A DNA stretch of 52,409 nt from a virus (taxonomy: Duplodnaviria; Caudoviricetes): the IMG/VR virus record IMGVR_UViG_3300028588_000383, positions 1-52,409 of that record; one strand, 5' to 3'. Shown here piece by piece: positions 14,355 to 37,518 of this stretch. The stretch's first letter is position 1, and each line of letters begins with the position of its first letter. Under the pieces are notes generated by a model, which searched no databases, was not told the DNA's origin, and was given only the letters and a program-made list of their open reading frames with translations. Made by a program: the position numbers and the translations under genes.

Positions 14355-15575
14355 TTACGCCGCGCTGTCCTGCACGGTGATGGTGGTCATTTCGGTGGCC
14401 TTGCCGGCGCCGCCGGTGCCGTCAAGCAGCGCCTGGAACGGGATCGTCTGGATCAGCACCTTCTCGCCGTCGTCCTTTGCCGCGCCATTGAGCTTGATGC
14501 GGCTCATGGTGAAGCCGACGAAGTCGGACGCGGCCGAGTTGTCGGCGGTGAAGACCAGGGAGGCGCCGACTTCGGTCTCGTTCACGAACGCATCGCGCAG
14601 CGCGGTCGAGTCGAATTTCGCAGTGATCTGGCCGGTGACGATCACGCGGCCGGTGGCCACCTGGTCGGCGGTGTTCGAACCGATGCCCGGCTCGCTCGAC
14701 TGCGCCGCGGTGATTTCGATGCTCGCACTGGTGATCGTGCCGCCGATAGCTGAACCGACCTTCACGACGCCGTTCACCGCCGCCATGGTGCCGGTAACGG
14801 TCACCGGGGTCGGGTTGGTGAAGTACTGCGCCGTGCCCGGGGTCATGTCCTTGCCGGTGAACTCCACCGCCACGGTCGCCATGCCGGTGGCCGGCAGCGT
14901 GTAGCTCACCTTCGAAACCTTGCAGCCGGTGAAGACTTCGCTCGCGCCGGTCGCGCCGGCGTCCGGATACCAGTGCTCGATCGCGAACGACTTGTCGATG
15001 TGCCCGGCCTGCGGGGTGAACGACTTCTTGCCGGCTACCACCAGGGTTGCGCTCGCGATCGGGCCCTGCGCCACCAGCGCCGACGCGTTCAGCACGATGC
15101 CAGTCATGACGGTCGCCGTCAGCGCGGTCACCAGGATGTTTTTGTCCAGGTTAGCCGGGTTGAAGGCGCCGGCGGTCAGGCGGACCACGTCGCCGGTCTT
15201 GACGCCATCGGTCAGCCAGGAGCCGGCCGCGCGCGTGAGCGTCCACGCGCCGGCAGCGCCGGCGATGGTGATCGAGGCGTTAGCGACCGAGACGCCGGCC
15301 ACGAAGTCCTTCTTCAGGACGGCAGCCACGAAGTCGCCGTAGGTCTTGGCCGACAGCTCACCGCTGATCGAGCCGCCCACCTTGCGCAGGCCGTGGCGGA
15401 AGTCGCCAACCTGGAAGTCAGGGCGGATCTCGGCCGACTGATAGGTGTCCTTCGTCAGGTCCAGCGACGAGGTGGTGCGGCGCATCGCCTGCGCGGCGCC
15501 GGCGGGCGGCATGACGCCGTAGGTGGTCTCTACCTTGTAGGTGACCTGCTTGAATACTCCGCTTGCGGTTCCCAT
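14355..15575 (-). CDS. major tail tube protein
   Basis: ETTYG, YQSAEIRPD, GGSISGELS, SFAIEH, FTGCKV motifs; position after tail terminator. Confidence 0.85.
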   Translation of the reverse strand: MGTASGVFKQVTYKVETTYGVMPPAGAAQAMRRTTSSLDLTKDTYQSAEIRPDFQVGDFRHGLRKVGGSISGELSAKTYGDFVAAVLKKDFVAGVSVANASITIAGAAGAWTLTRAAGSWLTDGVKTGDVVRLTAGAFNPANLDKNILVTALTATVMTGIVLNASALVAQGPIASATLVVAGKKSFTPQAGHIDKSFAIEHWYPDAGATGASEVFTGCKVSKVSYTLPATGMATVAVEFTGKDMTPGTAQYFTNPTPVTVTGTMAAVNGVVKVGSAIGGTITSASIEITAAQSSEPGIGSNTADQVATGRVIVTGQITAKFDSTALRDAFVNETEVGASLVFTADNSAASDFVGFTMSRIKLNGAAKDDGEKVLIQTIPFQALLDGTGGAGKATEMTTITVQDSAA

Positions 15576-24819: not shown

Positions 24820-26532
24820 TTATTCCCAGAAGGATTTTGCTTCCGACGCAACCTTGCTCACTAGGCCCGCAGCCATAACCGCCGCAATGATCAAGTCGAT
24901 GCGGCCGGTTGCCTTCTCCTTGTCGAGCTTGCGGCTTCCTGTTCCGTCCTGGACCGTCACCGCGTTGCCGGCGCACATCGTCAGCACCTTGTGCCCGTTG
25001 TGCGCCAGCTCGCCGTTCAGCAGCATTGTTTCGAACCGCTCGATGGCGGGACTCATATCTTTGTAACCTTGGCCAAACGCCTCCATTGGCGGCAGGCTAA
25101 TGCCATCGTCCGACGCCATCTGCTGCAGGTCTTCGATGCGCCAGCGGTCATATCCGCATATGGTGAGATCGAAGAAATCGCACATCGCCGACAGCTTTTG
25201 CAGGATGATTCGCTTACTGATGGCTCGGCCCGGGGTCGTATCGAGCAGACCTTCCGCCTTCCATTCGACGTACGGGACCATGTCCTGCTGCGCACGCCGC
25301 GCGAGGTCGGCATCTGGGAGCCATGCGTATGGAACCAACTTCCAAGGCTCGCCCGGCTCTACCGGCTGGACGAGAAACACCAAGCCTGTAAGGTCAGTGG
25401 TACTGGACAGGTCCAGCGCGGCCACAGCGCGCCGTCCGCGGAGCGACTCGACGTCGTAGTCGAGCTTCGCGCCCTTCCAGATTTCGTGACTGATCCAGGG
25501 CGACTCGGCGTCCGTCCATTGGCAGAAGTTCAGCCGGCGGACAAGCGATTCCTTCGACGGCATACCCCGCGCTTCCGTCACCTGCTCGCGGATGTACTTG
25601 TACCCAGGCAGGTTCGCGTCCTGCAGGCTGGGATTCGCCTTCGGCCAGCATTCTTCGCTTTCGAACGGGTCGTCGCCCTCGTCGAGAGCGCAGATGTACG
25701 GGAAGAAGGCGTCGTCTACCAGCTCGCCGGATGCAATCTTGGCGCCGTATTCGTGCGAGTTCCAGCACGGCGACTTGCGACTCGCGCCTGCGTTGGTGAT
25801 CACGAAGATCAGCGCCTGGCGCCGGCTCTTCGTACCAGCGCGCAGCATCTCCAGCACGGTCGCCGTCTTGTGTTCGTGATATTCGTCCACGAGCGCGACG
25901 TGCGGTCGCGGACCGGACTGGCCGTCGTCGCTACTGATCGGGCGGAAGAACGAACCGGTTTGCAGGAACGCCAAGTTCCACGCTTTTTCGCCAGTACCGC
26001 TCTTCGTCAGCCGCTTCTTCAACTCTGGCGACTGATCGTGCATCGCGACCGCGTCACGGAACAGGATCATCGCCTGGTCCTTCTTGGTCGCCGCCGAATA
26101 AATCTCCGCGCGCGGCTCGCCATCGGCGACCAGGCCTTTCATGCCGACGCCGGCGGCCAGTGGCGATTTGCCACTTCCCTTCGCTGTTTCAACGTACACG
26201 ACGCGGAAACGACGGTAGCCATCGTCGCTCTTCCATCCGAAAATGCTGCCCACTACGAACTTCTGCCACGGCAGCAACATGAAGGGCAAGCCCTCGAAGT
26301 CGCCTCCGTTTAGCTTCAGCACATCCTGGTAAAACCCAATTGCCTTGTGCGCGGCATCCACGTCCCATACTAGGCCTCGTGCGCCGCCCTCCTCCAGATC
26401 GCGCAGGTGGCGCGCGCATTGGTCGCGCACGTGCGGTCCGGCGATCTGGGTACCGGCGACGACTTCGAGGGCGTATGTAGTAACAGGGTCAGCCGAAGTA
26501 TCCGGCGAGCGGGTCTTTTTTCTCGTCGCCAT
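24820..26532 (-). CDS. terL: terminase large subunit
   Basis: LLPWQKF, Walker A AKGSGKS, VDEYHEH, ITNAG, DLSSTTDLT, GRID. Confidence 0.96.
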   Translation of the reverse strand: MATRKKTRSPDTSADPVTTYALEVVAGTQIAGPHVRDQCARHLRDLEEGGARGLVWDVDAAHKAIGFYQDVLKLNGGDFEGLPFMLLPWQKFVVGSIFGWKSDDGYRRFRVVYVETAKGSGKSPLAAGVGMKGLVADGEPRAEIYSAATKKDQAMILFRDAVAMHDQSPELKKRLTKSGTGEKAWNLAFLQTGSFFRPISSDDGQSGPRPHVALVDEYHEHKTATVLEMLRAGTKSRRQALIFVITNAGASRKSPCWNSHEYGAKIASGELVDDAFFPYICALDEGDDPFESEECWPKANPSLQDANLPGYKYIREQVTEARGMPSKESLVRRLNFCQWTDAESPWISHEIWKGAKLDYDVESLRGRRAVAALDLSSTTDLTGLVFLVQPVEPGEPWKLVPYAWLPDADLARRAQQDMVPYVEWKAEGLLDTTPGRAISKRIILQKLSAMCDFFDLTICGYDRWRIEDLQQMASDDGISLPPMEAFGQGYKDMSPAIERFETMLLNGELAHNGHKVLTMCAGNAVTVQDGTGSRKLDKEKATGRIDLIIAAVMAAGLVSKVASEAKSFWE

Positions 26533-26962
26533 CCGGGAGGTCCACGTTCACTTTCGATCGCGCGGCCGGCGTTAGGCCGAACTCCACCAGGTAGCTTTTG
26601 AATTGCGCATCGGCGGCGCGCAGCTGGTTGACCGCGGGATTGTTCTTGATGAGGGTGTTTTCGTTTTGATCGACCGTCGTGTAGGTTCGACCGTCACGCT
26701 CGATCAGCTCGCGACACGCCAGGATGTCGGCGTAGCAGTCGCACAGCCGCTCGAGGGCCAGTCCGTCGGCCTCGGTCATCACCCCCATTCGCCGGAGCAG
26801 CGTGCACAGCTTTTTCCACACCGCCTTGCCTTTCGCATCCAGGTGCGGCGGGCAAACCGGTGCTTTTGTGCGCGGTTTTGGCTCTTTTTTGTTCAGTGGC
26901 CGCTTGCCCGGATTGCCCGTGACCAGCTTGAGCGCACTGGGTATCGGGCGCCTTCCGGCCAT
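26489..26962 (-). CDS. terS: terminase small subunit, P27 family
   Basis: GRRPIP..LK..GNPGKRPLN, NPAV, EFGLTPAARSK. Confidence 0.93.
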   Translation of the reverse strand: MAGRRPIPSALKLVTGNPGKRPLNKKEPKPRTKAPVCPPHLDAKGKAVWKKLCTLLRRMGVMTEADGLALERLCDCYADILACRELIERDGRTYTTVDQNENTLIKNNPAVNQLRAADAQFKSYLVEFGLTPAARSKVNVDLPDGDEKKDPLAGYFG

Positions 26963-26989
26963 GATTTCAGTCCCAGAAAAAAAGTTTCA

Positions 26990-27065
26990 TTTCGCGGTTC
27001 TGCGCAAAGAGGGGGGAGGCGGTCCCCTTGGGCGAAGGTCCCGGAGATTTGATGCCCCCCGGCAC
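26990..27065 (-). other. probable cos packaging region
   Basis: Between HNH genes and terS. GGGGGGCATCAAATCTC..ACCGCCTCCCCCCTC..CGCGAAATGAAA resembles cos regions of HK97-like phages; exact nick site not determinable. Confidence 0.4.
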
Positions 27066-27115
27066 TATTTCACGCGAGAAAGATATTATTGAAGAAAAAT
27101 GTTTCCCTTGGTGCA

Positions 27116-27250
27116 TCAAATCGGCCATCCATCCGGCCCTGCGGCGCGCCTCACGCGCTTCGTCTTCCTCTGCTCGGCCTCGGTCTTTTGACCGCGCGGA
27201 GAGATCGCACAATGCCGCCAGAAACTCGTTGTGAACTTACGGAGGGGCAG
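27116..27250 (-). pseudogene. remnant 3' end of a terminase-associated HNH gene
   Basis: Frame ends KTEAEQRKTKRVRRAAGPDGWPI*, matching ITAEQQGRLKRPRKVIGPDGWPCE* of the gene at 28253-28558. Confidence 0.5.
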
Positions 27251-27251
27251 G

Positions 27252-28142
27252 CTAAAAGAGTGCGACTTGCCCAGATGACGGTAGCGGAAGTCCGTTGGAC
27301 CCAGCCTCGACCACTTCTCGCGCACCCTTGCGGCAGTTGCACCTGAGGTGGGCGAGTCTGATGTTGCTGTAGCTATGCATCCCACCGCGAACCAGAGGCA
27401 CGACGTGATCCAAAGTAGCAAAGCCTCGATCAGGCCACTTGAGCTGCAGATCAACCGACTCTCCGCAGAGCCAGCAAATTCCCTTGTCGCGTTTAAACAC
27501 TACCTGCAGATCAACATGTTCAACGTATGCATTTGCGCGCAGCGCCTTCCGCTTGTACTCGTTGGTACGGTTCTGCTGCTTTATTTCAGGGCGGTGGCGC
27601 GCCTGGGCGTACCACGCTCGCGCTTGGATGCGGATTAGCTTGTGCGAACACTCTTCTGAGCAGCAAACGTTCTTATTGATCGGCCTGAACTCGGTTTTGC
27701 AGATTCGGCATTCCGATACGAGCGGTGTGCCACGCTCATGGCGAGAACGGCACGCGGCGTCGCAGAATTTTCGCCCATTTGCCGGTGTGCTGCAGTAGGC
27801 GCACTTTTCATAATGCGATGTGTCGACCAGGGTTTCGATAGTGCCTCGCCTGCGAAGCCGATAGTAATGGACCTCGCAGTACTCGGCACGCCCGGACCGC
27901 AGCGGACTGGTGCATCCATCGATCGCACACTGGGTTGCTCGAGGTCGAGAAGTCCAAATCTTTACGCCGGCAGCATCAAGAGCGTTCGCAAAACTTCCGA
28001 ACAGTTTCTTTGCCATTGTGGTGCACGACATGCCAACGTCGGTAGACTTGCAATAGCCATCCTTTGCGTTCGCTCGAATCAAGTTAATAATCGATTCTTT
28101 GGTCCACTTGTGAGTGGACTGGGTATAATCTTTCGAAATCAC
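27252..28142 (-). CDS. HNH endonuclease with N-terminal repeat domain and zinc fingers
   Basis: RDKGICWLCG..TLDHVVPLVRGGMHSYSNIRLAHLRCNCRKG; multiple CxxC; WTKE..FGSFANALDAAG repeat. GTG start with GAGAGG RBS. Confidence 0.88.
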   Translation of the reverse strand: MISKDYTQSTHKWTKESIINLIRANAKDGYCKSTDVGMSCTTMAKKLFGSFANALDAAGVKIWTSRPRATQCAIDGCTSPLRSGRAEYCEVHYYRLRRRGTIETLVDTSHYEKCAYCSTPANGRKFCDAACRSRHERGTPLVSECRICKTEFRPINKNVCCSEECSHKLIRIQARAWYAQARHRPEIKQQNRTNEYKRKALRANAYVEHVDLQVVFKRDKGICWLCGESVDLQLKWPDRGFATLDHVVPLVRGGMHSYSNIRLAHLRCNCRKGAREVVEAGSNGLPLPSSGQVALF

Positions 28143-28217
28143 TACGATCCTCTCAACGGATTGATGTGATGAGAAGCCCGGATGGTGTTAGCGCACCTAC
28201 CGGGCTTTGTTGTTTCT
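28136..28217 (+). ncRNA. predicted ~80-nt cis-antisense sRNA to the HNH leader
   Basis: Perfect TATAAT at 28124-28129 inside the HNH gene. Hairpin AAGCCCGG..CCGGGCTT (28174-28207) followed by TGTTGTTT. The -35 element is weak. Confidence 0.45.
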
Positions 28218-28231
28218 ATTGTATTTCAGAG

Positions 28232-28247
28232 CTGTACAAATATACAG
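28232..28247. promoter_or_regulatory. LexA box overlapping -35 of HNH promoter
   Basis: CTGT ACAAATAT ACAG, with minus-strand -10 TACAAT at 28218-28223. Confidence 0.8.
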
Positions 28248-28252
28248 TGCTT

Positions 28253-28558
28253 TCATTCGCACGGCCAGCCATCGGGACCAATTACCTTACGCGGGCGCTT
28301 CAGCCTTCCTTGTTGCTCAGCCGTGATTCGCTTGTGGCACTCGGTCGAGACGGCCCGTAGGTTGCCTGGGTCATCCGTCCCCTTCTGCGCCTTCGGGATA
28401 ATGTGGTCGACTTCCTGCGCAAGCGTCACTCTAATGACGCCTCCCTTGCATTGATCGCACTGACACAGCCCGCAATCACGCTCGAGTATCTGGCGGCGCA
28501 GCTTTACCCATGCTGACCCGTAGCCGCGCTCGTGGCGGCTCTTCGTGCCCCACACCAT
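28253..28558 (-). CDS. terminase-associated HNH endonuclease (HK97 gp74-like)
   Basis: RGYGSAW.KLR..ILERD.GLCQ..C, EVDHIIPK..GTDD..NL..CH..T. Confidence 0.88.
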   Translation of the reverse strand: MVWGTKSRHERGYGSAWVKLRRQILERDCGLCQCDQCKGGVIRVTLAQEVDHIIPKAQKGTDDPGNLRAVSTECHKRITAEQQGRLKRPRKVIGPDGWPCE

Positions 28559-28710
28559 CAGCTAGGACCCAAATCGATCTTGACGCCGTGGTCGACGGCG
28601 GCGTTGATCACCATGCTGGACAGATGTCCCAAAGCCATTGCGATCGCCACAGCAGGCCGGAACCACCATGAAAAGCGCGTCCGGACCTTCAGCGTGACTA
28701 CATTGCTCAT
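28558..28710 (-). CDS. small hypothetical protein (50 aa, MSNVVTLKVR..)
   Basis: Translated by hand; coupled to both neighbours. Confidence 0.5.
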   Translation of the reverse strand: MSNVVTLKVRTRFSWWFRPAVAIAMALGHLSSMVINAAVDHGVKIDLGPS

Positions 28711-28970
28711 CGCTTCTTCCTCAGATGGGTGAACAGGTTCGCTGCCATCTGCCGCGCATCGCCAGGTACGCTGCGCGCCACGTCGACGACCGACATGCCG
28801 GCGGCGCCGTGACCATTCGCGCGCAGGATCTCCTGTGCATCGTGGCAGTCGGCCAGGTGCTGGGAGATCTGGTTGAGCCGCGCCAGGTCAGCCGCTTGCG
28901 CTGGCTGGGCACCAGGCCCGAGCACCGCGCGCATGATCTCCGCGCGGTAGATGCGTGCCATGTTGTTCAT
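28707..28970 (-). CDS. hypothetical protein
   Basis: 87-aa ORF in late operon orientation. Confidence 0.55.
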   Translation of the reverse strand: MNNMARIYRAEIMRAVLGPGAQPAQAADLARLNQISQHLADCHDAQEILRANGHGAAGMSVVDVARSVPGDARQMAANLFTHLRKKR

Positions 28971-29060
28971 GCTGCCGCCTGAGCCTGATCGATCACAGCC
29001 TGTTCGCGCATCACCTGAATAATGAAGCGCAGCCAGGACACTTCCGCCTCGACGCTCACG

Positions 29061-29273
29061 CTACTTCTCCCCGAAGCCAGGGACGTCGCGCTCGCTGGTC
29101 GTGCGCAGGCAGTAGACCCACGCGACGGCGATTATGGTGACGACGGTTCCCAGCACACCATAGGCCCAGCCCGGCGCGTCAAGGCGGTCAAGCAGCAACC
29201 ACCACAGGATGGCAAACGGGACTGGTGAACGCATAGGGAGCGACGACGATTTGATGGCGACCTTGCGCTTCAT
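29061..29273 (-). CDS. small two-TM membrane protein
   Basis: GAGG RBS; two hydrophobic segments. Confidence 0.6.
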   Translation of the reverse strand: MKRKVAIKSSSLPMRSPVPFAILWWLLLDRLDAPGWAYGVLGTVVTIIAVAWVYCLRTTSERDVPGFGEK

Positions 29274-29355
29274 GCGATACCTCGAAAAAGAAAAGCCGCC
29301 GGCGCATTGCTGCGACAGGCGGCGAAGTCCCCGGTTTTGCCGGGGCTGGAGACAC

Positions 29356-29431
29356 TGGAGCGGGTGGCCGGGCTCGAACCGGCGGCATCATGCTTGGAAG
29401 GCGTGCGCTCTACCAGCTGAGCTACACCCGC
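29356..29431 (-). tRNA. tRNA-Gly(TCC)
   Basis: GCGGGTGTAGCTCAGCTGGTAGAGCGCACGCCTTCCAAGCATGATGCCGCCGGTTCGAGCCCGGCCACCCGCTCCA: 76-nt cloverleaf with CCA end and one C-A mismatch in the anticodon stem. Confidence 0.9.
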
Positions 29432-29499
29432 ATTGATCGGTTGGCCCGTACGTGGGCCAGGCGGCGTGCCCCAGATCTATCTGATAAGTAGGCCGCAAT

Positions 29500-29533
29500 C
29501 AAAAAAGGCCCACCGCGAAGGGTGAGCCTTTTT
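29500..29533 (-). terminator. tR'-like terminator downstream of late promoter
   Basis: AAAAAGGCTCACC CTTCGC GGTGGGCCTTTTTT; can work in both directions. Confidence 0.75.
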
Positions 29534-29637
29534 CTAGGCGAGCGCCGGCTTTACTGCTGGCCGGACTGCTCGACTGCCTCGGGTGACGTTGGCGCCGAAG
29601 CGCGCATTACGTGGATCGAGGGATATGTGAAGGCTGT

Positions 29638-29669
29638 AGTTTACGCCCGTTTCCTGTGCAACACAACAG
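29638..29669 (-). promoter_or_regulatory. late promoter (pR'-like) with overlapping LexA box
   Basis: Minus strand TTGTGT-17-TAAACT. CTGT-N8-ACAG at 29654-29669 covers the -35. Lies downstream of the Q-like gene and upstream of tR'. Confidence 0.6.
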
Positions 29670-29764
29670 TATTTCAAATGTCATTTACCTAGTGCGGAAA
29701 GTGACTTTACGCACTGACCACACGAGCCGGAGCGCACATGCTGAGGCTTTCCATAGGAGGCCAT

Positions 29765-29941
29765 ATGTCCGACGATCCTACTAAGCGCGGCACACCCGAT
29801 CGAAATCTCATCAGCCTGAAAGAGCCCCACGAAGTCAGCTATTGGACCGATGCGCTCGGCGTCAGCAAGGAAGAGCTGGAGCGCCTGGTATCCGAAGTCG
29901 GCCACAGCGCATCGGCTGTTCGTGAACGATTGAAGAAGTAA
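29765..29941 (+). CDS. DUF3606 domain protein
   Basis: MSDD..RG..DR..I...E..EV.YW...LGVS.EEL...V..VG.S..AVR signature; AGGAGG RBS. Confidence 0.85.
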   Translation: MSDDPTKRGTPDRNLISLKEPHEVSYWTDALGVSKEELERLVSEVGHSASAVRERLKK

Positions 29942-29953
29942 CCTGCTGCCCGG

Positions 29954-30532
29954 TCAGGCGCAGGCCATGACCTGACTTGGGCGCGCCTCCCTGCGCATCT
30001 TGGCGCCGGCGCGCGCGCTGTGCGCCTGGTACATGCCCTCCAGCTCCGACACCATGTCAGCGATGCGCTCGCGCTCGAGTGTGCCACCCTGGATCGGTTC
30101 GCGGCCAGGCGACGCGGCGCAATGCGTGCACGCGCGACCGGCGCTGACCTTGGTGCCGTTGCACGCGCTGCATTCGCCGCCCAGCCAGTGCGCCAGCGAG
30201 TGCACCGCGATCTTCTTGTAGATGCCGTACGCCGCGCCGATGTCCCACTCGTGCTTGATGTTGATCCACTTGCGTGCGAAACCACGGCGCGCCACCTCGC
30301 CGGTCCAGATGCGCAGCAGCACGGCCAGGTCATGAGCCGAGCTTTCGACAGCTTGGCGCGGCACGCCGGCGATATGGGCGCGCAACAGCATCGTGCCGAA
30401 CAGCTCTCCCGGTCCTCCTGACAGATCGGCCAGCGCCGCAGCGACGAGCGGCTCCGTCTGGTGGTGTTGGTCGTCGTCCTGCATGTTGGAAGCACTCAAT
30501 GCCTGGACGTATCGGTCTGCAAAATTAAACAT
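29954..30532 (-). CDS. antitermination protein Q-like
   Basis: CSACNGT..CTHC zinc finger; last early gene before the late promoter and terminator. Confidence 0.6.
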   Translation of the reverse strand: MFNFADRYVQALSASNMQDDDQHHQTEPLVAAALADLSGGPGELFGTMLLRAHIAGVPRQAVESSAHDLAVLLRIWTGEVARRGFARKWINIKHEWDIGAAYGIYKKIAVHSLAHWLGGECSACNGTKVSAGRACTHCAASPGREPIQGGTLERERIADMVSELEGMYQAHSARAGAKMRREARPSQVMACA

Positions 30533-33834: not shown

Positions 33835-34326
33835 TCAGGCGGCTTCCCTGGCCAGCTCGCGCACGACGCTGGTCGAGTTGATGTGGTGGCGCACCCGGCG
33901 GTCGACCTCGCGGCAGGCCCGCTCGACGTCGATGGCCCGGACGTTCTCCAACTGCGCGTCATGGCACTCCAGCGCCTCACGGATCGCATTGAGCTCGTCA
34001 CCCTTCATGATCACGCGGTCAAGCGTCACGATGCGCTTGCCGACGGCCAGCAGCGCATCGCGCGCCGCGATCGTGACCGGCCGGAACTCGTCGCCGATGC
34101 CCTGCTCGCACATCACGTTCGCCATGTTGATCGCGCCGACGAGCAGGTCCCACCCTTCCCGGGTGCCGGCGCCCTGCGCCATGTCGGCCAGGGCCTTGTG
34201 GCTGCGGATTTGGATCAGGCGCAAGTGCTCGATGTGGTCGCCGCTCATTCCGCCGAATACCGTGGTGAGGACATTGCGGGCGACGTACTTCGGCCCCTGG
34301 TATTTCTTGTTGCGCGGCTTTTTCAT
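33835..34326 (-). CDS. conserved phage hypothetical protein
   Basis: MKKPRNKKY.. start at 34326, coupled to the upstream gene. Confidence 0.7.
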   Translation of the reverse strand: MKKPRNKKYQGPKYVARNVLTTVFGGMSGDHIEHLRLIQIRSHKALADMAQGAGTREGWDLLVGAINMANVMCEQGIGDEFRPVTIAARDALLAVGKRIVTLDRVIMKGDELNAIREALECHDAQLENVRAIDVERACREVDRRVRHHINSTSVVRELAREAA

Positions 34327-36938
34327 GCTGCCTCCTGCTCTGGCTGCGCCGCGTCGACCACTTCGAAGTCGAACAGCGTTGGCATGCTGACCTCGCGCTC
34401 CATCGCGCGGCAGTAGTGCACCTGGTCGGCGAAGTACGCGGGGTTCAACTCCGACCCGGCGCCGCGGCGGCCCAACTTCATGGCGCGCACCGGTACCGTG
34501 CCCAGGCCGCAGAACGGGTCGTAGACGACTTCGCCCGGGTTGCTGTAGCGGTTGATCAGGCGGTCCACGATGTCGATCTGGAACGGGCATACGTGCTTCT
34601 CGACCGCCCGGGCCGACTGATCGCCGTTCAGGGTGCGCATGCGCACGATGTCGTGCCAGACCATTGGATCGGCGCTGCCTGGCGCCAGGCTCAGGTAGTC
34701 GGCCGGCAGCGCCTTGTTGGACAGCATCTGCTCGCCGACCGCGACATGCAGCTCGTAGTTGTAGACGTTGGCCAAGCTCATGTCGGTGAACATCTTGGCC
34801 AGCTTGGCCGGGCCGTAGGCGGCGATCTCCTCCGCGCCCAGCATCCGGTCGCCGCTCGATCGCCAGAAGGCGTGCGCATCAACCTGCCAGCGCGCCACGC
34901 TGTACCCGGTACCGGGCAACGGCGCGAGGCGGCGGTCGAAGTCCACCGGCTCTCCGTCGTCGTTCTGGCACAGCGGCTTCGCCTTCGTCACCGGGACGTC
35001 GGCGTAGCCGCGGCTGCGGTCGGTCTGCGGCTTGTGGAACAGCAGGATGTATTCCGGGCTGCCGACGCCCATCTTCGTGCCGTCCTTGCACACCTCGGAA
35101 TAGCCCAGGCGGTAGGTCTGGTTGTTCTCGCGCACCACGTCGGTGACAACCGTGATCATGCCCAGGTAGTCGAAGCCGTGCTTCATGCCATGGAACAGCG
35201 CCTCGGCGTGGAACGGGCTGACCGTCGGGATGCCGGCGCCGGTCACGTTGCCGAAGTTGATCCGGTCCTTCACGTGGCAGGCGTAGATGCGACCAGGCTG
35301 CAGGATCCGGTACAGCTGCGGCGTCAGGAAATCCATCTGCGCCCAGAAGTGGGCGTTGTCCTGGGTGTGGCCGAAATCGTTGTAGCTCGGCGTGTACTCG
35401 TAGTGGTTCGCGAATGGCACGCTGGTGACGATCAGGCCGACCGAGTTCTCCGGACGCTCGAGCGCCTCCAGCACGCAGTCGTTGTTGGCGACGGTGAAGC
35501 GCTCGCCGGCGACGACATGCCGCTCGACGCCGATCGTGCGCGCCAGGCTGTCCTGCATCGACAGCTGGTCCAGGCCGTAGGTGCGGATGATCTCACCCAT
35601 CGTTTCCTGCATCTCGTCGTGCCGGCGCCACTTCTCCTGCAGCTCGGCCAGCACCGCGCGCTCGACCTCGGTGTGGATGATGTCGAGCCGGACCGGGCGC
35701 GACTGCTGGAAGCGCTGGATACGGTGGATTGCCTGGATGAAGTCGTTGAACTTGAATCCAATGCCGGCGAAGATCGCACGGTGGCAGTGCACCTGGAAGT
35801 TGCAGCCCGAGCCGGCGATGATGGGCTTGGTTGACAGGATGGGGAACTTGCCGTCGCTGAAGTCGGCGATGCGCTGCTCGCGCTCTTCCAGATCCTGCGT
35901 GCCCCACACGCTCATGGCATTCGGCAGCGCCGCCTGGATGGCGTGGCGCTCATCCTCCAGGTCGTGCCAGATCACGAAGTGGTCAGCCGGATCCGCCCCG
36001 ACGATCTCAGCGACCTTGGCCACCCGCGCGCCCAGGCTCTGCCGCTTCTCGCCGGCGGCAGCCGACAGGCCCATGGCCGGGTTTGGGATCAGCATGCCCT
36101 GGCCGTTCTTCTCGGCGCCGGCCGCCTCGTAATCGCTCGGCACCTCGTGGTAGCGCACCTCGAGCGGCGGGAGGTCGTAACCCTCATCCGAATGACCCAG
36201 GTCGCTTGGCCGGCGGATGAAGCACGCCCAGCTCGCCACCCACAGCCAGAATTCGGTTTCCTTGTGCGGGTAGAGGGTCAGGTTGCCCGCCTTCTCGCTG
36301 TCGCGCTGGAAGAAGCGGGTCAGCGCCTGGCCGGTGTCCATCACGCCCAGGAAGCCGGCGTAGTGGATCAGCTCCTTGAAGCGATTCGGGCTCGGCGTCG
36401 CCGTGAACACGAACTTGAACTCGACCTGGTCGAACAGCGGCAGGAACTCCTGATAGGTCTTGCTGCCGTAGCTGCGCAGGATGCTCGCTTCGTCCAGCGA
36501 CGCGGCGCCGAAGCGGCGGACGTCGATCTTCCCGTCGCGCACGCTCTCGTAGTTCGTCATGTACAGCGTGTCCGGGCCTTCGATCTCGGCATCCGTGCGG
36601 ATGAATCGCAGGTCGACGGCGTGCTCGCCGGTGAAGCGCTTCGCCACCTCGCGGGTGAACTCCTGGCGCACACCCAGCGGAAGCACGATCAGGCGCAGGC
36701 ACGGCCGGTGGATGCCGATCTGGCGCATCACCTCGAGGTTTGTGCTGGTCTTGTGCAGGCCAAACGACGCGAACACAGCGCGCTGGCCGCCCTGCAGCGC
36801 CCATCGGACGATGTCGCGGGTGTGCGGCTTGAGGTTCGGATTGATCTTCTCGAGCGGGACGTCGAAGCCTTGGCGCGGTGCCAGCTTGATTTTGGCGCGG
36901 AGAAAATCGTTGTAATCGCTTAAAATATTGGCAGACAT
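34323..36938 (-). CDS. SNF2-like helicase fused to N4/N6 DNA methyltransferase
   Basis: GLHKT, LDEAS, TATPSPN, QAIHRIQRFQQ helicase motifs; TSVPF, KHVCPFQ, DPFCGLGT, GSEL methylase motifs. Confidence 0.88.
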   Translation of the reverse strand: MSANILSDYNDFLRAKIKLAPRQGFDVPLEKINPNLKPHTRDIVRWALQGGQRAVFASFGLHKTSTNLEVMRQIGIHRPCLRLIVLPLGVRQEFTREVAKRFTGEHAVDLRFIRTDAEIEGPDTLYMTNYESVRDGKIDVRRFGAASLDEASILRSYGSKTYQEFLPLFDQVEFKFVFTATPSPNRFKELIHYAGFLGVMDTGQALTRFFQRDSEKAGNLTLYPHKETEFWLWVASWACFIRRPSDLGHSDEGYDLPPLEVRYHEVPSDYEAAGAEKNGQGMLIPNPAMGLSAAAGEKRQSLGARVAKVAEIVGADPADHFVIWHDLEDERHAIQAALPNAMSVWGTQDLEEREQRIADFSDGKFPILSTKPIIAGSGCNFQVHCHRAIFAGIGFKFNDFIQAIHRIQRFQQSRPVRLDIIHTEVERAVLAELQEKWRRHDEMQETMGEIIRTYGLDQLSMQDSLARTIGVERHVVAGERFTVANNDCVLEALERPENSVGLIVTSVPFANHYEYTPSYNDFGHTQDNAHFWAQMDFLTPQLYRILQPGRIYACHVKDRINFGNVTGAGIPTVSPFHAEALFHGMKHGFDYLGMITVVTDVVRENNQTYRLGYSEVCKDGTKMGVGSPEYILLFHKPQTDRSRGYADVPVTKAKPLCQNDDGEPVDFDRRLAPLPGTGYSVARWQVDAHAFWRSSGDRMLGAEEIAAYGPAKLAKMFTDMSLANVYNYELHVAVGEQMLSNKALPADYLSLAPGSADPMVWHDIVRMRTLNGDQSARAVEKHVCPFQIDIVDRLINRYSNPGEVVYDPFCGLGTVPVRAMKLGRRGAGSELNPAYFADQVHYCRAMEREVSMPTLFDFEVVDAAQPEQEAA

Positions 36939-36940
36939 AT

Positions 36941-37483
36941 TTACTCCACAGTGATTTGTTCAGAGGCCGCGCCGGGTGCAACCGTCGCGGTCTCGCTATT
37001 TCTGATCAGGGTCAGGCACTCGGCCAGCAGCTCGCGCTCTGTCCCGTAGATCGCCTGGAAGGTCGCCTTGCGGCCGTGCACGCTGATGCGCCCGCGCAGG
37101 TCCGTGTCGTCCTGCTGGTGGTGTGGGCCGCACAGGGGTAGCACGAGGAGGTGCGCGCCTGGCTTCGTCCTGCCGTCGATGTGATGGATGCTCACGATCG
37201 CGTTGTGCCAGCCATCCTTGCGGCACGCAATACAACCCAGGGCGGCAATGCGGGTCATGAACTGCGCTTCGGCGGTGGTAGGCGGGCGTCCCTTCATGCC
37301 CCGCGACTTCATCAGCTTCGGCGGCTTCGATTCCCGCTTGCGCGGGAATGTGGCCTTGGCCTGCACCGCGGCGACACGCAGCAGGCCTGCGCCGGCGGCT
37401 GGCGTCTTGAAGCCGGTACCGCGCGCCATCGGCGACTTGCGAGCAAGCGGCTTGCCCTGCTTGAAGGGTGAGCGGCGCATCAT
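36941..37483 (-). CDS. Ref-family recombination enhancement nuclease
   Basis: Basic N-terminus, LGCIACR, IHHI.GR, LPLC..HH, YGTE.ELL. Confidence 0.85.
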   Translation of the reverse strand: MMRRSPFKQGKPLARKSPMARGTGFKTPAAGAGLLRVAAVQAKATFPRKRESKPPKLMKSRGMKGRPPTTAEAQFMTRIAALGCIACRKDGWHNAIVSIHHIDGRTKPGAHLLVLPLCGPHHQQDDTDLRGRISVHGRKATFQAIYGTERELLAECLTLIRNSETATVAPGAASEQITVE

Positions 37484-37518
37484 GCTACGATCCTCGTCTC
37501 GACACCGAAGGAGCAACT

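Follow-up and report, generated by a model that had tools for sequence, protein, structure and literature searches.

A predicted SymR/sar-type antisense RNA gene at the head of an inserted HNH endonuclease gene in a phage genome

We have analysed the 5′ end of an HNH endonuclease gene in a viral genome of the Caudoviricetes. The stretch studied (termed the window) is the whole 52,409-base IMG/VR virus record IMGVR_UViG_3300028588_000383. The gene (27252..28142, minus strand) encodes a 296-aa free-standing HNH endonuclease, with a GTG start codon at 28142..28140 and a ribosome binding site (RBS), GAGAGG, at 28154..28149. On the opposite strand an element at 28137–28216 overlaps the start of the gene. 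The best explanation overall, and one that we consider likely, is that this is a small cis-antisense RNA gene of the SymR/sar family, heading an inserted HNH homing-endonuclease gene that would be its target.

The antisense element and its position at the HNH gene

The gene order on the minus strand is 101-aa HNH (28558..28253), 296-aa HNH (28142..27252), terminase small subunit TerS (26962..26489) and TerL (26532..24820), and all credible genes around the site are on this strand. The spacer between the two HNH genes is 110 nt in length. Together with the first codons of the 296-aa gene it holds every feature listed in an earlier note on this DNA, i.e. a LexA box, a minus-strand TACAAT, a plus-strand TATAAT, the GTG, GAGAGG and a terminator hairpin, all of which are present in the sequence.

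The predicted cis-antisense RNA is about 80 nt long (28137..28216, plus strand) and is identified as sar/SymR type by its fold, by the Rfam symR model and by a family covariance model (R1) that is described below. The −10 element of its putative promoter, TATAAT, lies at 28124..28129 on the plus strand within codons 5–7 (D-Y-T) of the HNH gene, and ends 7 nt before the predicted +1. This is the sole perfect copy of TATAAT on both strands of the window; 2.4 would be expected, so there is no enrichment. Stem-loop 1 (28138..28170, plus strand) has the anti-Shine-Dalgarno sequence CCUCUC (28149–28154) in the loop and at the top of the stem; the outer stem contains the complement of the GTG. It is followed by a terminator hairpin (28173..28208, plus strand) with the apex GTGTTAGCGCAC, and then by a U-rich tail at 28209–28216. 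An 85-nt plus-strand RNA folds as these two hairpins at −35.1 kcal/mol (z −4.98), and none of 200 shuffled sequences folded as well. As in symR, the promoter would lie within the coding sequence of the target, and the RNA would cover both the start codon and the Shine-Dalgarno sequence.

Two other roles for the hairpin were considered. A terminator for a plus-strand gene was rejected, all credible genes here being on the minus strand. A bidirectional terminator serving the upstream small HNH gene was also rejected; there is no U-run after the hairpin on the minus strand.

We also note a 7-bp hairpin at 28102–28119 (plus strand), in codons 8–14 of the HNH gene and immediately upstream of the antisense −10, which was listed by a terminator scan. 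Hairpins are found by eye at the corresponding place in copies of the element from Escherichia coli (Icd type) and from a Pasteurella phage.

A family of antisense cassettes

When the region 27000–30000 was scanned with all Rfam families the only match at the site, besides tRNA, was to symR (RF01809). The match spans 28137–28211 on the plus strand and model positions 1–77 of 77, with a score of 24.9 bits (E = 0.095 for the 3-kb region and 0.008 for a 251-nt stretch). Rfam sar (RF00262) gave no match at E ≤ 10 in the same region. We constructed the covariance model R1 from 15 sequences of the family, including K-12 symR and leaving out the window. With filters off, R1 matched 28137–28216 (plus strand) in the whole window over its full length (model positions 1–79) at 65.9 bits and E = 1.4e-14. 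A covariance-model search of the hairpin had been set as a check in the earlier note, and it returns the element with both models. The central proposal of that note, a SymR-like short cis-antisense RNA whose promoter lies in the nuclease gene and which covers RBS and start codon, is borne out by the full-length symR match, the R1 match and a register that is that of K-12. Its likening of the locus to SymE/SymR holds for the architecture of the RNA and fails for the SymE protein, since the domains that Pfam identifies in the 296-aa protein are HNH and HNH_5, with no SymE domain.

As negative controls, 426 kb of terS loci gave one match to R1, and loci collected as relatives of the HNH gene gave three in 380 kb. 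Two of these control matches (in loci L274 and L083) are antisense cassettes at the 5′ ends of HNH genes; that in L064 lies at the start of an HNH gene, judged by coordinates, and that in L039 scores 26 bits. R1 also recovers the annotated sar of phage P22, matching 614–691 of the locus (annotated 620–689) at 26.2 bits and E = 7e-4 in 166 kb. P22 sar lacks the hairpin pattern that was used to collect the family, yet is matched by the model. On this comparison of sequences and folds the element at 28137–28216 genuinely belongs to a family of cis-antisense RNA cassettes that is widespread.

A second, weaker R1 match is present in the window at 36933–37002 (plus strand; 27.8 bits, E = 9e-5), with TAAAAT 6 nt upstream. 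Positions 4–6 of this RNA would be complementary to the ATG of an 871-aa N6/N4 DNA methylase gene (34323–36938, minus strand). It has an anti-Shine-Dalgarno CUCC in the first hairpin, and the terminator apex differs. The match overlaps the final ~20 codons of the upstream gene for a RecA-dependent nuclease (36941–37516).

A blastn search with 28090–28270 found the hairpin, about 82% identical, in E. coli genomes, in Pseudomonas phage PS-1 and in a Pasteurella phage. In E. coli it is 82% identical over 55 nt in 340 of 5426 genomes, where it lies just before Icd-like genes of integrated islands, on the strand opposite to them. At these Icd-like loci we considered a C4/CI-type immunity RNA, which was rejected; the only Rfam match there is symR. 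In all three sources the hairpin is on the strand opposite to a gene whose start codon is 36–42 nt before the hairpin. The target in PS-1 is a 253-aa protein encoded directly upstream of terS, annotated endonuclease VII in PHROG, and that in the Pasteurella phage is an endonuclease with NUMOD4 and HNH_3. The symR model scores 39.4 bits in PS-1 and 33.6 and 33.3 bits in the E. coli copies, in each case over its full length and at the expected place.

The exact hairpin-core pattern was found in at least 119 viral contigs. We fetched 80 of these, which with the window and three annotated loci give a sample of 84 loci. An opposite-strand open reading frame (ORF) starts 21–63 nt before the hairpin in 80 of the 84 (the remaining 4 have none), and 74 of those 80 have a Shine-Dalgarno-like sequence. 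Clustering of the 80 target proteins gave 27 that are Icd-like, 12 Bro-N/P22_AR_C and 4 P22_AR_N antirepressors, 3 serine recombinases and 13 singletons. The nucleases comprise 11 that cluster with the HNH protein of the window, 7 HNH_3/endonuclease VII proteins (from high-GC contigs) and 3 further HNH proteins. Pfam finds nuclease domains (HNH, HNH_3, Endonuclease_7, GIY-YIG and NUMOD3) in 18 of 21 representatives of the nuclease clusters, and also confirms the antirepressor and recombinase labels.

Among ten family loci analysed with Rfam, symR was matched in three (42.5, 41.8 and 29.3 bits), again over its full length and where expected, and sar in the antirepressor-linked loci L132 (30.1 bits) and L126 (28.6 bits), both below the sar gathering score of 43. 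Because antirepressor-linked copies match Rfam sar, and R1 finds the authentic sar of P22, SymR and sar look like two ends of one family. The site in the window lies below the Rfam thresholds for both symR and sar, yet judged by R1 it is a clear member of the wider family that bridges the two. Sub-threshold matches to Rfam abiF RNA (gathering score 37) were observed at L118:3493–3531 (30.6 bits) and L131:754–816 (29.5 bits), i.e. in Pseudomonas phage PS-1 and a related viral contig.

The fold is conserved throughout the family. All 32 non-redundant members form a 5′ hairpin, with the anti-Shine-Dalgarno sequence in the loop or upper stem, followed by the terminator hairpin; one of the 32 has an additional outer helix around the pair. 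In 30 of 32 the RNA strand folds more stably than its reverse complement (summed free energies −1110 and −873 kcal/mol, respectively), and several positions are mostly G-U pairs, which become A-C mismatches on the sense strand. Both hairpins are recovered by RNAalifold, with compensatory changes in 12 of 24 and 11 of 23 pairs. In an alignment of 38 matches 94.9% of cells pair (74.7% in shuffles, and 36–50% with slid partners) and 21 of 23 pairs have changes on both sides, with covariation in helices 1 and 2, but this alignment was fitted to the model so that these counts lean towards it.

The embedded −10 is equally constant. A TAnnnT sequence is found in the antisense of the first six codons in all 32 members. 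By contrast it occurs in 568 of 5400 random 18-nt windows (10.5%), and at 66 of 400 other ORF starts in the same loci. Residues 5–7 are [D/N]-Y-T in seven of eight full-length homologues of the HNH protein of the window and D-Y-P in the eighth, while the N-termini are otherwise variable; the HNH protein of L083 has Q-Y-T at these positions. The codons for residues 5–7 spell the antisense −10, and we therefore infer that the conservation of [D/N]-Y-T is the footprint, at the level of protein, of the antisense promoter.

The inserted HNH gene and its putative promoter

PF01844 (HNH) matches residues 223–275 of the 296-aa protein (E = 5.8e-8), and the protein also matches PHROG families annotated HNH endonuclease. 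PF18780, a homing-endonuclease-associated repeat, matches the N-terminus weakly (E = 0.001; 19.8 bits, where the cut-off is 26). The protein thus has the nuclease domain and DNA-binding module expected of a homing endonuclease, the latter by a weak match. It has 18 matches in the protein database; scans of viral, metagenome and genome contigs gave no locus more than 55% identical, over part of the protein.

We compared the locus with that of 40 relatives having terS 85–98% identical. In 37 of the 40 the locus shows the small HNH gene upstream of terS, and the 296-aa gene is absent from all 37. The gap between the small HNH gene and terS is approximately 110–170 bp in most relatives and larger in about 15; in the window it is 1290 bp. 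Presence or absence at one site among close relatives is the behaviour of a free-standing homing endonuclease. A remnant of ~100 nt from the 3′ end of an older small-HNH gene (27116..27222, minus strand) lies just after the 296-aa gene, and can be aligned with the corresponding 3′ segment of the small HNH gene in the relative L239. The stretch 27222..26700 is 90% identical to L239. The intact upstream small HNH gene has only ~52% protein identity to that of L239, i.e. it is a divergent allele. Given the relatives that lack the 296-aa gene, the L239-like remnant and the divergent upstream allele, the 296-aa gene and its cassette evidently arrived by insertion, along with a replacement allele of the small HNH gene. 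The pattern is that expected from a free-standing homing endonuclease, as judged from these alignments.

Several other relatives have gaps of 400–1000 bp with different content at this junction. In two other phage lineages, L274 (325 aa) and L083 (265 aa), different HNH genes occupy the corresponding position, with the small HNH gene on one side and terS on the other; these genes are headed by R1 cassettes at L274:1214–1289 (39.8 bits) and L083:2804–2880 (57.5 bits). Because these other cassette-headed HNH genes are found there, the junction between the small HNH gene and terS looks like a hot spot for insertion.

On the upstream side of the 296-aa gene there is a LexA-type box of the form CTGT-N8-ACAG, CTGTACAAATATACAG, at 28232..28247. 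It occupies the position where the −35 of a sense promoter should be, 8 nt upstream of TACAAT (28218..28223, minus strand), which we read from the sequence as the −10 of a putative private promoter for the HNH gene. All eight core positions of the box are exact, and its spacer is AT-rich. CTGT-N8-ACAG occurs three times in the window where 0.44 are expected, and none of 100 shuffled sequences reached three. The type of box used by the host was taken from the imuA gene of the window. This host-type gene (1236–1975) matches NF033429 at 211.9 bits (cut-off 150) and has a box at 1956–1975, immediately upstream of its start; this is the sole site with three or fewer mismatches from the 20-nt consensus. 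Since the same type of box stands at the start of imuA, the LexA protein of the host evidently uses CTGT-N8-ACAG. The presence of a host-type imuA gene with a LexA box also suggests that the record seems to include host flank at its left end. The box at 28232..28247 therefore overlaps a putative promoter, and is of a type that the host uses.

Of the endonuclease-linked loci of the family, 11 of 15 have a sense TAnnnT no more than 30 nt beyond the hairpin, as do 1 of 6 antirepressor-linked loci and 2 of 5 Icd-linked loci.

The third CTGT-N8-ACAG match in the window, at 29654–29669, has a GC-richer spacer and may be due to chance. It lies ~70–110 nt upstream of a small plus-strand ORF (29738–29941), just beyond a gene for tRNA-Gly(UCC).

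Of the neighbouring genes, TerS (26489..26962, minus strand; Terminase_4) is the downstream neighbour of the 296-aa HNH gene. The 101-aa small HNH gene (28253..28558, minus strand; PF01844) stops 5 nt from the LexA-type box, and its homologues in relatives are directly upstream of terS. The tRNA-Gly(UCC) gene (29356–29431, minus strand) is ~80% identical to tRNA-Gly of Pseudomonas phages, and is situated between early-region genes (methylases and a RecA-dependent nuclease, 33–41 kb) and the packaging genes. In a blastn search of a 2.6-kb region against phages the only similarities were to terS and the tRNA.

Proposed mechanism, alternatives and related systems

From the family membership, the conserved embedded −10, the covarying antisense fold, the strand-specific terminator, the complementarity to the leader and the HNH insertion, all computed here, a mechanism may be proposed. 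The RNA would start ~7 nt after TATAAT, three bases inside the coding sequence, and end at the hairpin and U-tail ~80 nt further on; with these start and end points it would be fully complementary to the start codon, the RBS and virtually all of the leader of the HNH gene. It would probably be made constitutively. Stem-loop 1 would present the anti-Shine-Dalgarno bases, and pairing of the RNA with the leader would block ribosome binding and probably mark the duplex for cleavage. The nuclease would thereby be kept low whether its mRNA came from read-through of the late operon or from its own promoter. The latter, with TACAAT as −10, would lie just outside the terminator of the RNA, and because there is a LexA-type box in place of the −35 it would probably stay closed as long as the lysogen is undamaged, and be opened by the SOS response. 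Interference from convergent transcription may add to this. Transcription, translational repression, LexA binding and SOS induction are proposed here from sequence and from analogy with studied systems.

A number of observations weigh against this reading. The symR score at the site (24.9 bits) does not reach the gathering score of 61, and weak symR matches are common, being found at E ≤ 10 in 10 of 14 control genomes. A symR search of the whole record did not list the site, its best match being 14.2 bits at 15052–15111; since cmscan and R1 both find the site, we regard this miss as an effect of the first-look filter. No symR match was found at E ≤ 1 in the Pasteurella phage copy, and in five of the ten family loci Rfam returned nothing at E ≤ 1. 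Since the hairpin pattern itself was used to draw the sample, the near-invariance of the apex is in part a product of the sampling; the apex does vary in P22 sar, in L274 and in the second, weak match in the window. A simple consensus scan called no sigma-70 promoter in 26500–30000, and the terminator rule of that scan did not list the hairpin at 28173–28208. By eye both proposed −35 hexamers, antisense and sense, have at best three of six consensus positions. A search of sequencing runs gave nine, all DNA or of unknown type and one having 0.83 of the sampled words, and found no RNA run with this sequence. The leaning of the 38-match covariation counts, noted above, belongs here too.

The hairpins might instead act in cis as the leader of the sense mRNA, hiding the RBS or stabilizing the 5′ end, with no antisense RNA being made. 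The sense strand folds too (a 129-nt minus-strand stretch has −36.7 kcal/mol, z −2.98), and the Shine-Dalgarno sequence would sit in the sense hairpin. However, this would leave unexplained the greater stability of the antisense strand, the frequent G-U pairs that are mismatched on the sense strand and the U-tail that follows the hairpin on the plus strand only. A −10 is kept in the first codons of unrelated proteins, and a sense leader needs none; moreover both experimentally studied relatives, SymR (PMC1891008, in its accessible text) and sar (by the annotation of P22), are antisense RNAs. We consider a role as sense leader improbable. Quite improbable also is a type I toxin-antitoxin module, whose role would be addiction or abortive infection and not to control a homing endonuclease. 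The architecture is that of symE/SymR, which is filed as type I toxin-antitoxin (in the Rfam name, and in the accessible text of PMC1891008), and the nuclease could be toxic. But the protein has only HNH and the weak match to a homing-endonuclease repeat in place of a SymE domain; the gene is an insertion, variable among relatives, at a hot spot with other cassette-headed HNH genes; and across the family the cassette is found at the head of HNH, HNH_3, endonuclease VII and GIY-YIG/NUMOD genes. The earlier note had offered a toxin-antitoxin-like system or a leashed homing endonuclease. The insertion, absent in close relatives, favours the latter, and the former gains nothing.

A further alternative accepts the antisense RNA and takes the LexA-type box to be a chance palindrome, so that expression of the HNH gene would depend wholly on late-operon read-through, with damping by the RNA and no SOS control. 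The box is present in one of the 84 family loci, i.e. the window alone, and is absent from the L274 and L083 cassettes at the same genomic site, so conservation offers no backing for it. The −35 of the sense promoter is poor, the scan did not call this promoter, and the target of P22 sar, ant, is read from an upstream promoter according to the annotation. Set against this are the exactness of the eight core positions, the AT-rich spacer and the placement 8 nt from TACAAT within a 110-nt spacer. The pattern occurs only about once per 25 kb in the family loci (10 in 252,848 bases), imuA in the window uses the same type of box, and E. coli symE combines a LexA site with SymR (accessible text of PMC1891008). 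We regard a chance palindrome as rather unlikely, though much less so than either of the two alternatives above. SOS control of the HNH gene is suggested by the quality and placement of a single site and by the parallel with symE, and we would put LexA control at slightly less than an even chance. That an antisense RNA gene of the SymR/sar family is present and restrains the HNH gene is, in our view, probable.

A genome that carries a free-standing homing endonuclease must be protected from damage by that enzyme. To our knowledge the means of restraint is not known for most of these enzymes. The window points to a portable restraint, in which an antisense RNA of SymR/sar type travels with the first codons of the gene. 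If the LexA box is functional, it would tie a homing endonuclease to the SOS response. The family also suggests a common origin of the textbook RNAs SymR and sar, with symE/symR deriving from a phage regulatory cassette, and with R1 many small RNA genes of phages and prophages that now lack annotation could be annotated. We tentatively go further, and suggest a history that seems to us almost as likely as not to be correct. A single ancient and portable antisense cassette (promoter in the first codons, anti-Shine-Dalgarno hairpin and terminator hairpin) might have been fused repeatedly to selfish or dangerous genes, i.e. homing endonucleases, antirepressors, Icd-like genes, recombinases and SymE, in phages of Proteobacteria and high-GC Gram-positives. 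SymR and sar would be members, and symE/symR a domesticated copy. In the present genome a LexA operator would have been captured too, confining activity to the SOS response, when the prophage and co-resident phages replicate.

Rfam holds symR and sar as separate families with no clan, and they are listed separately in a review (PMC5415839). The accessible text of PMC1891008 makes no mention of P22, and a literature search found no paper linking SymR with sar, or describing RNAs of this kind on HNH homing endonucleases. Added here are the links to SymR and to sar, the K-12 register and the LexA box.

The element in the window may be compared with symE/SymR of E. coli (RF01809; Kawano et al. 2007, PMC1891008). 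According to the accessible text of that paper SymR represses symE, mutation of the −10 abolishes the RNA, and the symE promoter carries a LexA site. The predicted RNA of the window and SymR are both two-hairpin cis-antisense RNAs of 77–80 nt with a promoter within the first codons of the target. The register is common to both, the start codon (ATG in symE) corresponding to RNA positions 4–6 and the −10 (TAGAAT in K-12) ending 7 nt before +1, and the terminator apex differs in one base of twelve. A LexA-type box on the side of the target promoter is also common to the two; in the window it starts 16 nt beyond the end of the RNA, whereas in K-12 a box with one mismatch, identified by eye, starts at the 3′ end of the RNA. 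The targets differ, being a 296-aa HNH endonuclease in a phage late region and SymE, a 113-aa protein of AbrB fold, and the RNA of the window has a U-tail that K-12 SymR lacks.

The likeness to sar/ant of phage P22 (RF00262; annotation of NC_002371.2) lies in a short antisense RNA with its promoter at the start of the target, coverage of the RBS, and an end hairpin of the same build. By eye the apex of P22 sar has compensating changes relative to that of the window, and antirepressor-linked copies in the family that have the apex of the window match Rfam sar. P22 sar starts just outside the start codon, while the RNA of the window would start 3 nt inside the coding sequence, and the target of sar, an antirepressor, is read from an operon promoter that lies upstream. 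A distant relative of sar, carried by a prophage of Mycobacterium mucogenicum, is expressed on Northern blots, its function being left open by the authors (in the accessible text of PMC6582537). We liken this RNA to that of the window by description; the sampled family includes high-GC members heading HNH_3 and endonuclease VII genes.

Finally, CfrI of cyanophage S-PM2 is an antisense RNA over the homing endonuclease F-CphI (Millard et al. 2010, cited in the accessible text of PMC5931967). It is likewise a phage antisense RNA that overlaps a free-standing homing-endonuclease gene. It differs, in a comparison made by description from that text, in being a longer RNA on the 3′ side of psbA that links psbA to the endonuclease gene.

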